Source: Eledone cirrhosa
Lineage: Eukaryota
Direction of reading: 5' to 3'
Assembly (NCBI GenBank): GCA_964016885.1
Contig: OZ024753.1
Coordinates: 38,440,001-38,504,000 of the forward strand
DNA length: 64,000 nt
This document shows, in pieces, positions 26,345-54,961 of the stretch (position 1 is its first letter; the number at the start of each line of letters is the position of its first letter). The position numbers and the translations under genes are program-made. The notes below the pieces were generated by a model that had not been told where the DNA came from, ran no database searches, and was given only the letters and a program-made list of their open reading frames with translations.

Positions 26345-26502
26345 AACGAAGGAATTGTGGTAAGGAACCAGGTGGACCATAACGCACCAGAGTACTCAAT
26401 ACTTAGGGTAGTAGAGTGGGTAATAGGAAAAGGTATGACCCCGACGCCAGAAATAGCCGTCGAAACGGCTTGAGCTCTGCCGTCGGGGTCATACCCTTTC
26501 CT
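26345..26502 (-). mobile_element. Fold-back half-hammerhead element, copy 1
   Basis: aacgaagg...gaccccgacg followed by an inverted segment tagccgtcgaaacggcttgagctctgccgtcggggtc; in (TA)n. Confidence 0.8.
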
Positions 26503-27171
26503 ATATATATATATATATATATATATATATATATATATATATATATATATATAAGAAATAGGATATATATATATATATATATATATAAGAAATAGGATAT
26601 ATATATTATATACATATATAATGTACAGTGAGTACTGTAAACGATGTGTGTAGAATATTGCTACCACAATCACCATAGACTGACTATCTAATGTTCAGTA
26701 TTTATAGATCGTTTAGAAAATGGTATGATGTCCATTGATATTGTGAAGACGACGTATATATTAATAGCACATTTCTGATAAACGCCATTTTGATTTTGTT
26801 TTAAATTTCCTTTTTGTTTCATTGTCTCAGAACAACTTTATTTATTTATAAAAGAATAAAAGAGAAAAAACATACCTAAAACAAGAAAAATATATTATAT
26901 TTCCTGTAGTTCTATATTGTTGAACAAAGCAACGAAAACTGTAAGGGGAGACATGAAAAATCATAAAGGCTAAAGGTCGTATTTGGCTGCTATGCGTCTT
27001 AGAGTGTTGGTGTTTACATAGCAGCCGACAGTGTGTTGTCGACTGTCAAAACCAACAAGAATCAAGTTAACTTCGAGCATTTCTGAAAATTCCCGGAAGA
27101 TTTTGAATACATTATATTTTACAACTAAATGATGGATTCCTCAGCTCACATACCTGTCTAGAACTATTATG

Positions 27172-27400
27172 ATATATGCCTTTTCCACCAAGAATTTCAC
27201 GGAATACTTTCCACAGAAAGCTAAAGACTTCCACAGTCCCTCATTTGTGATAATTGATATGACTGAAATTAGTGATTAAAGTTGTGTATATATGCCTTTC
27301 CACTAAGAATTACACTGAAGACTTTCCACAGAAAGCCGAAGACTTCTACAGAACCTCATCTGCGATAATTAATATGACTGAAATTAGTGATCAAAGTTGT
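27172..27400. repeat. Tandem duplication of about 118 bp
   Basis: tatatgcc..ctttccacagaaagc..atatgactgaaattagtgat..aaagttgt occurs twice. Confidence 0.85.
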
Positions 27401-27999
27401 ATGGACAAGAAAGAAGTTACTAAGCTTTTAATTCGCTTTCAGTTCTTTGCTGAATCCATTTAATTTTACTTATAGCAAGGGTCCCCAAAGTTCATCCTCA
27501 TCCCCAACATCAACTCCGACATAGAATACTTACACCCCCTCATTCACCTTAAGCCTCCACAACAACAACAACAACAACAACAACAACAACAACAACAACA
27601 ACAACAACAACAACAACAGGTTATTTATCAAAGATCAGTCCACAACCGGGTATAGCCGCCATCAAGGGAAATAACATCAAATCTCTCCGTGAAGTTCTTT
27701 TATTCACTCGGCAGTCCAGACATGGTGGAAGGAGTGCTGCGTGCATGCGTGCAAGATTGTCACGTGTGTCTTCCGTGTTTTTGTCTCGTACGGGTCACGT
27801 GCTTAAGCTAATTCATGTATGTATATCAATATTATGTGGGTCATAATATAAAGTTTATAGTACTGGTGGCGTGTTCCGTGACCAACAGTCAACTAACATA
27901 ACCAGTATGTTACGTGCTTCCAAACCTTTCTCTGTAATTTTGTGAAAGAGTTTTAAGCTATCAAATATGAACAAAATTTCTTTTTTTCTTTAGCCTCTT

Positions 28000-28530
28000 T
28001 GCCATCATATTCTAATGAAAACCGCTGTCTGTAATTTTCAAATAATGTTGAAAATAATCAAGAACTGAAAAGGATTTAATAATATAACTAACTTTCTTCT
28101 TATTAAGCTGGTGTTTAGAACATAATTTAATAAAGGTGCTTGAATGAAATTATGATGGAAGGTTTTCAGATATATATAAACAGTTTAATTATTTCCTAAC
28201 GTTTCTAAGACATTGACGATAGCTTTCAAATAATTTTGAAAATAATCAAGAATTTTGACGGATATAGTAATAATTAGTTTTCTCATTATAAACTATTGTT
28301 TGGAACATAACTTAAATATTCTTACGTAAAATTATGATGGAAGGTTTTTAGATAAATACCTCGCTGTTGCCATACTTCTAATGAAAGACATTGCTTATGA
28401 TTTCCAAATAATTTTGAAAATAATAAAGAATATGGAAGGATATAGCTAATTTTCTCATTATGAAGTTGGTGTTTGGAACATAACTTAACAAAGATTATTA
28501 CATGAAATTATGATGGGAGGTTTTTGATAA
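28000..28530. repeat. Three diverged tandem units of about 175 bp
   Basis: caaataat..tgaaaataat..aagaa, ggtgttt(a/g)gaacataa and aaattatgatgg(a/g)aggtttt each recur three times. Confidence 0.85.
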
Positions 28531-28544
28531 ATAAATCTGAGAGG

Positions 28545-28712
28545 ACAAAACACCACCCTGGTAAGGATGCCAGGCCATCGCAGAGTTAAATCCTCAGCCA
28601 TTGCTGGTACTCATTTTCAGCTGAATATATTGGAGCAGCACACAAACCATTCCAGGAATCGAACCCACGACATTATGATTGTAAGTCCAACGTTCTTACC
28701 ACTAAGTATCCA
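28545..28712 (-). mobile_element. tRNA-derived SINE remnant
   Basis: Reverse complement has cttagtggtaag and B box gggttcgattcc. Confidence 0.65.
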
Positions 28713-28789
28713 CTTTTATATAGATAGAAACACTTTAAAATAAACAGCTTAGAATCGTAGAACCAGAGGAGGTTTCGGGTACACAGGGG

Positions 28790-29490
28790 CAACACACACA
28801 CACACACACATACCCCACAACATACAGACATATACAGAGGCAAACACACACACATACTCCACGACACAGACACATACAGAGGCAAACACACACACATACC
28901 CCACGACATACAGACACATACGGAGGCAAACACACACACATAGCCCACGACACAGACACATACAGAGGCAAACACACACACATACCCCACGACATACAGA
29001 CACATACAGAGGCACACACACATACCCCACGACATACAGACACATACGGAGGCAAACACACATACCCCACGACATACAGACACATACGAAGGCAAACACA
29101 CACACATAACCCACGACACACAGAGATACACACACACACACACACACATACCCCACGACACACAGACACATACAGAGGCAAACACACACACATAACCCGC
29201 GAGACACAGATACACACACACACACACACATACCCCACGACACACAGACACATACAGAGGCAAACACACACACATACCCCACGAGACACAGATACACACA
29301 CACACACACACATACCCCACGAGACACAGAGACACAGACAGACAAACACACGCACATATCCCACGAGGCACAGATACACACACACAGACACACACACAGA
29401 CACGCACGCACACACACACACACACGCACACACACACACACACACACAAACACACACATATATCCCACGAGACATAGATACACAGTCAGA
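28790..29490. repeat. Minisatellite of about 44 bp (cataccccacgacatacagacacatacagaggcaaacacacaca)
   Basis: About 15 imperfect tandem units. Confidence 0.9.
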
Positions 29491-53367: not shown

Positions 53368-53491
53368 AAGGAAAAAAGATGAAATCGAAAATGCAACTGG
53401 AGTCTTTTAAAGAATATTTATTTGTTTCCTTTACCGGTTTCACAGTTCTTATGCTTTTCAAAAGTAGAATTGAGATGGAGGGTTTGTGGTT
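53368..53491 (-). mobile_element. Short HHR-bearing element, copy 2 (HHR 53429-53464, U3:A8)
   Basis: Minus strand: ctt TTGAAAA gcat aagaa ctgt GAAA ccgg TA aag; homologous to 13118-13260. Confidence 0.7.
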
Positions 53492-53629
53492 ATATATATA
53501 TATATATATATATATATATATATATATATATATATATATATATATACATATACATAGCGTATCTTAACCATTTTTGAATCTATTTTTGGCGGGATCGGAT
53601 TGAAAAACTAGATGTCTGATTTTGAGTTT

Positions 53630-53705
53630 GTCTCCTGATGAATCCTAACTCAGGACATTCCTATTATTTGGATGTCTAAAATAAGGAAGAAACCATGGTA
53701 GAGAT
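53630..53705 (+). ncRNA. Type I hammerhead ribozyme with intact core
   Basis: gtctc CTGATGA atcct...ggacattcc/ggatgtct...aggaa GAAA ccatgg TA gagat; palindromic ACCATGGT stem III; GUA cleavage after 53700. Confidence 0.7.
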
Positions 53706-54039
53706 ATAATTACGGTATGTGCGCATTTCTTCTAAGTTAAATTTTACACCTAATTGTGTATGGTTGATGGTATATTTAGTCAGTTTCTACATGCTGTCGA
53801 AATGTTGGATAAATACTCGATTGAGGCCGCCGCGAAGAGGCTACGTTCGGTTATTTGTCGGAGATTTCCCCATAAGAGCATTTATTCTTATAGCTTGTTC
53901 TGATTGATTTTTTATATGGTTAGTTATGCTAATTAGAAGAAGAAATAGTATATATTTTATTATATGATGATTCTAAAGACATGATTTATGATATATATAT
54001 ATATATATATATATATATATATATATATATATATATATA

Positions 54040-54265
54040 CGGATTAACAAATAATAGTTAAATGCAGTCCACTTAGGTGAAGTCCAGTTATGGTATTCCA
54101 GGTAGTGGATGATATTAACGCTTGGCTTGGTTTGACTCAACAAGGCGTTTTCATAGTGATGCTGCGGGTATGCTGTAATTCCTATGTTGTAAACACTTGG
54201 GAACCACATTGGCACATGGTTGGACAATACATGTGTCCCTAGACGCTTTTTGCGTGTAGGGATAT
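54040..54265 (-). pseudogene. Possible Penelope-like GIY-YIG endonuclease C-terminal remnant in (TA)n
   Basis: Minus-strand translation YENALLSQTKPSVN (54114-54155) fits the E-x2-hh-x4-P-x-h-N end of GIY-YIG domains; short motif only. Confidence 0.35.
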
Positions 54266-54580
54266 ATACTTTATTATTATTATATATATATATATATGTA
54301 TATATATATATATATATTTATATATATATATATATATATATATATATATATATATATATATATATATATATATATATATATATATATATATATATATATA
54401 TATATATATATATATATATATATATATATATATATATATATATATATGTATGTATATATATATATATATATACATATATATATGTATATATATTATAAAT
54501 ACATATATATATATATATATATATATATATATATATATATATATATATATATATATATATATATATATATATATATATAT

Positions 54581-54856
54581 AACGAAGGAAATGTGGTAAG
54601 GAACCAGATGGACAATAACGCACCAAAGTACTCAATACTTAGGGTAGTAGACTGGGTAATAGGAACGAGTAGGACCCCGCGGCTGAGCTCAAGCCGTTTC
54701 GAGGGCTAATTCGGCTAAATGCAGAATTACCCGTCGAAACGGCTTGAGCTCAGCCGTCAGGGTCCTACTCGTTCCTATTACCCACTCTACTACCCTAAGT
54801 ATTGAGTACTTTGGTGCGTTATGGTCCACCTGGTTCCTTACAACATTTCCTTCATC
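54581..54856. mobile_element. Fold-back half-hammerhead element, copy 4 (complete inverted dimer)
   Basis: Arms of about 130 bp are reverse complements around about 54716; (TA)n on both sides. Confidence 0.9.
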
Positions 54857-54900
54857 ATATATATATATATATATATATATATATATATATATATATATAT

Positions 54901-54961
54901 TGAGTCCAGAATTAGCCGTCGAAACGGCTTGAGCTCAGCATTCCGGGTCCTACTCGTTCCT
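54901..54961 (+). mobile_element. Fragment of the same family, copy 5
   Basis: agtccagaattagccgtcgaaacggcttgagctcagc..gggtcctactcgttcct. Confidence 0.8.

Follow-up and report, generated by a model that had tools for sequence, protein, structure and literature searches.

Five copies of a short repeat in a 64,000-nt stretch of the Eledone cirrhosa genome (contig OZ024753.1, positions 38,440,001 to 38,504,000; hereafter the window) are, by their sequence, 5'-truncated, head-to-head 3' ends of an autonomous Penelope-like element (PLE), and the membership of this family in PLEs is practically certain. The truncation falls inside a hammerhead-like ribozyme, of which all five copies have only the 3' half. 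We suggest that such palindromes arise when two separately primed cDNAs run to one fixed end of their RNA template, probably a transcription start within the ribozyme, and are then joined end to end; for this reading as a whole we estimate a probability of about 0.6.

Copies in the window and their parent element

Positions in the window refer to the whole 64,000-nt stretch, while offsets in the element are counted from G of the ribozyme's GAAA. The five copies consist of the following arms:

Copy 1, 26346-26501, whole
26346..26446, minus strand: tail-bearing arm, 5' end 4 nt upstream of the GUC site
26447..26501, plus strand: tail-less arm, from 15 nt upstream of GAAA to the end of stem I
Copy 2, 31677-31864, whole
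31677..31819, minus strand: tail-bearing arm, extending 21 nt upstream of GAAA, with 2 extra bases
31820..31864, plus strand: tail-less arm, beginning 5 nt upstream of GAAA
Copy 3, 31911-32098, whole
31911..32044, minus strand: tail-bearing arm; its subfamily is more diverged (84-86% to the other copies)
32046..32098, plus strand: tail-less arm, after a 1-nt spacer at 32045
Copy 4, 54582-54855, whole
54582..54721, minus strand: left arm, with tail, extending 23 nt upstream of GAAA
54722..54855, plus strand: right arm, with tail, beginning 14 nt upstream of GAAA
Copy 5
54901..54960, plus strand: solo tail-less arm between TA runs, beginning ~18 nt upstream of GAAA

All five are set in (TA)n. 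They contain the stem II 3' strand, GAAA, stem III with a palindromic GAGCUC loop, the GUC site and GGGG, as an earlier examination of the letters by a model (the sequence-only reading) had recognized; it was equally right that the 5' core half is absent (0/5). The tail-less arms of copies 1, 2, 3 and 5 indeed share the terminus TTCC followed by TA, although copy 5 is a solo arm rather than the short side of a pair. In copy 1 the arms are crossed, each holding sequence that the other lacks. Inversion had been placed in or at stem II, and the junctions do fall in its 3' strand and in the 3' side of loop II, but "gacggcta" at the copy centres, taken for the opposite side of the stem, is the 3' strand itself in reverse complement. 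What really forms the 5' side is CGGCTATTY, located ~45-55 nt upstream of GAAA, which short copies lack. A repeat search of the window was dominated by TA runs, and among the matches listed in the Rfam scan of the window (150 of 410), which were microsatellite or palindrome matches to microRNA models, there was no hammerhead.

The host genome (3.0 Gb) is rich in (TA)n and contains 40,037 exact matches to the stem III 20-mer versus 0 for the reversed control; at 20,059 places two such arms stand head to head within 90 nt, forming short palindromes. Thirty loci (designated by L numbers) were fetched with the right arm of copy 4, and only L007 ran far upstream. Its upstream part was then used to fetch another set, and the missing half of the ribozyme was present in 30/30 loci of it. 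Uninverted copies, whose search had been proposed by the sequence-only reading, do exist and carry the predicted stem I 5' strand CCCC, but they are not rare (at least 1,433 arms) and read YUGANAA instead of CTGANGA.

The autonomous parent that had been anticipated is represented by copies coding for reverse transcriptase (RT) and a GIY-YIG domain. Its unit of ~3.6 kb is composed of a pseudo-long terminal repeat (pLTR) with the ribozyme, an 80-nt tail, the 5' untranslated region (UTR), ATG 213 nt after GAAA, RT, a cysteine linker, GIY-YIG and a 1.1-kb 3' UTR, and the tandem junction pLTR-tail-5' UTR-ATG was found in L066, L220, L209 and most of L221-L250. The single open reading frame (ORF) of ~720 aa has RT followed by C-terminal GIY-YIG. 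A Pfam scan of two pieces of the L061 ORF gave no match, so that the domain names are based on visual recognition of YRDD and VIY..YIG motifs in L061 and L066 and on 1,643 homologues (E<=1e-10, ~40% identical, up to 725 aa). The ORF also contains SDKTG (DKT), CNCPDGSIC (CxCX5C), CNLC (CxxC), CKH (CxH) and RWR in place of RWK, motifs of the Hydra clade of PLEs, and the TA run was reached at both ends in 54/57 short pairs of arms. Judged from these motifs and from the (TA)n target, against the description of the clade, the parent is a PLE with Hydra-clade motifs.

The ribozyme core is well preserved in 145 long arms (U4 in 145, G5 in 142, A6 in 144, A9 in 144, G10.1 in 140), but with A at position 8 in 143 of them it reads UUGANAA or CUGAGAA rather than CUGANGA. 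Position 7 is free and varies by subfamily (G 117, T 12, A 11, C 5). Position 3 is U in 68 arms and C in 75, the latter concentrated in the largest subfamily, which is over-represented here owing to the choice of query; the 3-8 pair is therefore U3-A8 in 66 arms, U3-G8 in 2 and a C3.A8 mismatch in 75. In the ribozyme stems 90% of cells pair versus 25-50% when slid. The minimum-energy fold of the ribozyme region (z -1.0) differs from the hammerhead fold, and since covariation is not above shuffles (375/500 as high), the fold, which is type I hammerhead-like by sequence, rests on conservation of the core. The C3.A8 mismatch breaks the 3-8 pair and probably makes a poor cleaver by analogy with other single changes of this pair, which abolish cleavage, while insertion in vitro needs no cleavage (PMC11167929). 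The largest subfamily has spread despite the lost pair, a natural parallel to this dispensability in vitro. Few arms terminate at the GUC site (copy 1 of the window and L072). A motif GTTTCGAC located ~290 nt upstream of GAAA (L061:8600-8612 and long copies) is complementary to GTCGAAAC of the ribozyme and could pair with it.

Ends, pairing and joints of the arms

The sample, blind to structure, comprised the first 100 sites on contig C1 that match the stem III 20-mer exactly. A peak at 22 in the first arm-length histogram turned out to be an artefact of choosing the best of 118 references, and a stricter calling of arm ends was used, which may stop early at old mutations. In this sample of 100 unselected arms, 84 terminate within 1-22 nt upstream of GAAA; the interval 23-29 is empty, single arms terminate at 30 and at 56, and 14 pass through the core. 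The limit thus lies 21-22 nt upstream of GAAA, at A of TC/ATTT (the slash marks the limit). The histogram of inversion points suggested in the sequence-only reading is therefore non-random, as it expected, but the family does not always invert there, the inversion points of long copies being scattered over as much as 3 kb upstream. In contigs derived from reads (four runs of one study, of unrecorded kind and possibly from the assembly's own sample) a 15-19-fold step in depth was registered in the bin with the limit A, and loose TA ends at both 3' ends. A chimera of assembly or amplification is ruled out by this step together with the fixed, family-specific ends and limits. Thirty loci contain the ORF start; GAAA is reached in 21 of them and the limit is passed in 18 of these 21, which means that the site is not a fixed roadblock; nine stop sooner, four of them representing one duplicated event. 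Older subfamilies (L062:8100-8600 and L208), ~75% identical in the 3' UTR, share their two 3' ends with the other copies and have a comparable limit.

Pairing of the arms was studied in 57 short pairs taken in and beside the sample. All but one (56/57) combine a tail-bearing arm with a tail-less one, and the layout of copy 4, with the tail on both arms, occurs in none of the 57. There are accordingly two fixed 3' ends, one per arm, at the end of stem I and at the end of the tail. In the element each of them borders on TAT and could form a short pairing with the TA target, in line with the proposed TA microhomology. Neither arm is regularly nested in the other: in 56 pairs the tail-bearing arm is longer in 25, the tail-less one in 22 (in 10 of these cleanly, by at least 3 nt), and 9 are equal. 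The tail-less arm exceeds its partner by hundreds of bases in L037, L040, L056, L104 and L120; in L061 it measures 3.1 kb beside a partner of 25 nt consisting of tail only, and in L092 a kilobase arm likewise stands beside a tail-only partner. Since TTCC is the 3' end of these kilobase arms as well, it is a point of start and not, as had been supposed, the place where a second strand stops. Lengths of the two arms are coupled in long copies. For the first 30 core-bearing arms the partner was found in 20 cases and was long in 17 of them versus 14% expected; long-with-long still makes 17/30 even when the 10 arms for which no partner was found are all counted against it.

Of 57 junctions, 28 are blunt or show 1 nt of overlap, 3 show an overlap of at least 2 nt and 26 have extra bases, some of which are old mismatches. 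The commonest single junctions are perfect palindromes centred on self-complementary 2-4-mers. Both arms belong to the same subfamily in 45/55 insertions; a mixed pair (L255), found among four unpaired cases inspected, is ambiguous as to two source RNAs in one insertion. Five products (L155, L230, L240, L241, L242) contain a jump, restarting inside the ORF after the limit region, with restart joints at +956 in L230, +954 in L241, +937 in L242 and +317 in L240, and the added unit begins again 21 (L155) or 17 (L241) nt upstream of GAAA. RT of R2 elements is reportedly able to jump from the 5' end of its template. Untemplated purine-rich (A/G) bases are present in four of the five joints and may be the tails of prematurely ended transcripts. 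L155 (approximately 246-930) contains three tandem units starting from -21, the first two of which run through the tail and 5' UTR to 20 nt past ATG; this tandem is topped by an inverted arm and looks retrozyme-like but lacks the core.

Origin of the palindromes

Based on the favoured reading one can assume the following course of events. The protein of the element would nick both strands of the (TA)n target and start one cDNA per site, as Anolis Poseidon does in vitro. RNA initiated by an internal promoter would begin at the limit A, in loop II, and would therefore be devoid of the ribozyme 5' half; because both start sites lie within 150 nt of its 5' end, both cDNAs would run off there. The two cDNA ends would then be trimmed by 0-20 nt and joined, sometimes via a self-complementary end of 2-4 nt, while long copies and partial tandems would derive from read-through or circular RNA with the whole ribozyme. 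Penelope is described as having an internal promoter with an initiator (PMC2377424), and Adineta Penelope an initiator (Inr)-like motif in the pLTR (PMC3846280). Components of this scheme differ in their standing: two separate priming events per palindrome are highly probable, coincidence of the limit with the template end is likely, and identity of this end with the transcription start is slightly favoured, the model singling out one base, the limit A, as the predicted 5' end of RNA. With a little less than even chances the scheme may be extended to PLEs in general, so that two kinds of insertion would come from two kinds of RNA: a promoter within the ribozyme would supply uncleavable mRNA with both RT start sites close to its cap, which a dimeric enzyme would convert into strong-stop palindromes by tens of thousands, and ribozyme-complete read-through or circular RNA would yield long copies.

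Several observations weigh against the favoured reading. Only 3/21 ORF-start copies end at the limit, meaning that RNA from the promoter seldom gives full-length copies and a second class of RNA must be assumed. Trimming must be assumed as well, since 56/84 short arms terminate at 12-18 and not at 22. The TC/A context is short and common in AT-rich DNA, other subfamilies have TA/A or TT/A at the limit, and the limit falls at the tip of a small hairpin predicted for loop II. An extra C resembling a cap trace is not enriched in the focal family (6 cases in the first 100 rows, of which 3 can be attributed to the partner arm), one search behind this check having yielded mostly long copies of another subfamily. 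The shared subfamily of the arms fits one template as well as two, and the transcription start is a prediction from DNA copies.

The coincidence with the hairpin suggests that the same two primings may have occurred with the limit set by RNA structure, either by a protein that sits on the loop II hairpin and blocks RT, like the template boundary of telomerase, or by a nuclease that cuts the apical loop. For 4-5 of 7 subfamily representatives an apical hairpin is predicted, and the limit is the end of its 3' strand; ~10 arms have extra A residues after the last AAA of the cDNA, as slippage at a stall would give, and blocking of only a protein-bound pLTR would let full-length copies pass the upstream pLTR, the arms sharing one fate. 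However, the hairpin is weak (-4 to -15 kcal/mol for the whole stem II, with the z score and covariation given above), a second, unrelated family described below has a similar limit 68 nt upstream of its core together with extra C residues, and palindromes of other families are centred 0-92 nt upstream of intact cores. We consider a structural limit rather unlikely. In the sequence-only reading, nascent cDNA was thought to snap back on stem II, prime its own second strand and join the target by TA microhomology, and self-priming is already a published explanation of junction palindromes in PLEs (PMC3846280). The fold-back could also use a few terminal bases, with the centres remodelled later. 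The near-constant subfamily identity of the arms and the prevalence of perfect palindromes centred on self-complementary 2-4-mers are in line with self-priming. Yet folding back on stem II requires that loop II and the 5' strand be copied into cDNA beforehand and be found at the centre, and the product containing them has 0 exact matches in comparison with thousands for patterns of like length. Moreover, a self-primed copy cannot exceed the first strand, and the excess of tail-less arms in 22/56 short pairs, let alone by hundreds of bases in the loci listed above or beside the tail-only partners of L061 and L092, would mean that roughly every second copy had suffered a deletion afterwards. As deletions at palindrome centres could mimic crossing of the arms, such data lower the chances of self-priming without reducing them to nothing, and we regard it as improbable.

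Even less credible is propagation of the short palindromes by themselves, as a non-autonomous hairpin element descended from one founder and resembling a miniature inverted-repeat transposable element (MITE), a Helitron or a retrozyme. The ~20,000 copies are of similar size and some junction sequences recur, which speaks for it, but one and the same junction turns up in either orientation and in four different subfamilies, long relatives with matching diagnostic bases exist for at least seven of the short subfamilies, and the unequal ends, with and without tail, match internal sites of a retroelement. A MITE- or Helitron-type element as such, for which equal terminal inverted repeats or Helitron ends and no RT parent would be expected, fits neither the unequal ends and variable centres nor the RT-bearing parent. 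Non-LTR retrozymes are made of non-coding tandem units, each with a complete hammerhead (bioRxiv 10.64898/2026.07.22.740005), whereas the short copies are inverted and lack the core, as does the sole short tandem seen (L155).

Other families and known systems

Besides the focal family, the window contains other elements with hammerhead motifs:

31227..31395, strand not assigned: control palindrome of the second, unrelated family; centre 31310, intact CTGATGA core at 31379
54978-55509 (also 30874): third family, cores at 55311 (plus) and 55176 (minus); 255-nt arms, each with a complete canonical hammerhead
24189 (plus), 35935 (plus), 36632 (minus), 32749 (minus): other CTGANGA..GAAA motifs, probably ends of other PLE families

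The second family forms 1,588 short palindromes whose arms stop sharply 68 nt upstream of an intact canonical core (window copy and L281-L286), where its parent reads TC/A, as the focal family does at -22. By eye, 0/50 listed junctions run 3 nt past this limit, and 7/50 have an extra C after the cDNA end, ~12 more being ambiguous. An extra C can mark copying opposite the RNA cap, and the initiator consensus is the background for TC/A. The second family is thus a cleaner case than the focal one for testing a capped RNA end. The centre of the third family lies ~68 nt upstream of the core, and in flanks of the fetched loci at least six more families form palindromes; wherever a core could be located, it lay 0-92 nt downstream of the centre.

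Earlier work has already described the element class, inverted ends, tail and U3-A8 core. Formation of tandem and inverted insertions of PLEs was named as an open question (PMC8557442), and the model with two primed cDNAs and a fixed template end was not found in the open literature, subscription papers and supplements being outside the search. The focal family is a natural data set of large size, in which the models can be told apart by the hard 5' limit, the single tail of each pair, the crossing of arms, the coupling of their lengths and the jump products. For annotation it means that ~20,000 hairpins are by-products of a PLE and not MITEs, microRNA precursors or ribozymes, and that a search for CUGANGA misses the family twice, because of the truncation and because of the U3-A8 core. 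If the favoured reading is true, inverted ends stem from two primed cDNAs rather than from self-priming, and palindrome centres would map the transcription start of each PLE family to one base from DNA alone.

Among known systems, the Hydra clade (Craig et al. 2021, PMC8557442) shares with the focal family the order of RT and GIY-YIG in the ORF, the DKT, CxCX5C, CxxC and CxH motifs and an RWK-like RWR, as well as (TA)n targets, pLTR, a tail at one end and an inverted 5'-truncated copy; Apostichopus japonicus, the host of the one named homologue, is listed for this clade. Hammerheads of the clade are described as canonical, whereas the focal core has U3-A8 or C3.A8; its tail is 30-40 nt and its unit below 3 kb (typical rather than strict values) versus ~80 nt and ~3.6 kb here, and most focal copies end inside the ribozyme. 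PLE hammerheads surveyed by Cervera and de la Pena (2014, PMC4209133), including U3-A8 of Schistosoma Cercyon, have the same type I fold within the pLTR, G10.1-C11.1, palindromic loop III, U3-A8 core and motifs on opposite strands 100-700 bp apart, while in the focal ribozyme stem III is longer (5-6 bp), loop II has 32 nt, A9 is followed directly by G10.1, and a large subfamily carries the C3.A8 mismatch. In Adineta Penelope (Arkhipova et al. 2013, PMC3846280), head-to-head pLTRs, an optional tail, junction palindromes and the Inr-like pLTR motif are shared; self-priming on an antisense template was proposed there from few copies, while the large counts obtained here favour two primings and a fixed 5' limit. 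The closest parallel in priming is provided by Anolis Poseidon PAc (Frangieh et al. 2024, PMC11167929), which also has two adjacent internal start sites for RT bracketing the tail, nicks and extends both strands of AT-rich targets and does not need ribozyme cleavage for insertion; PAc starts at non-homologous sites, whereas both focal start sites precede TAT, so that pairing with the target is possible.

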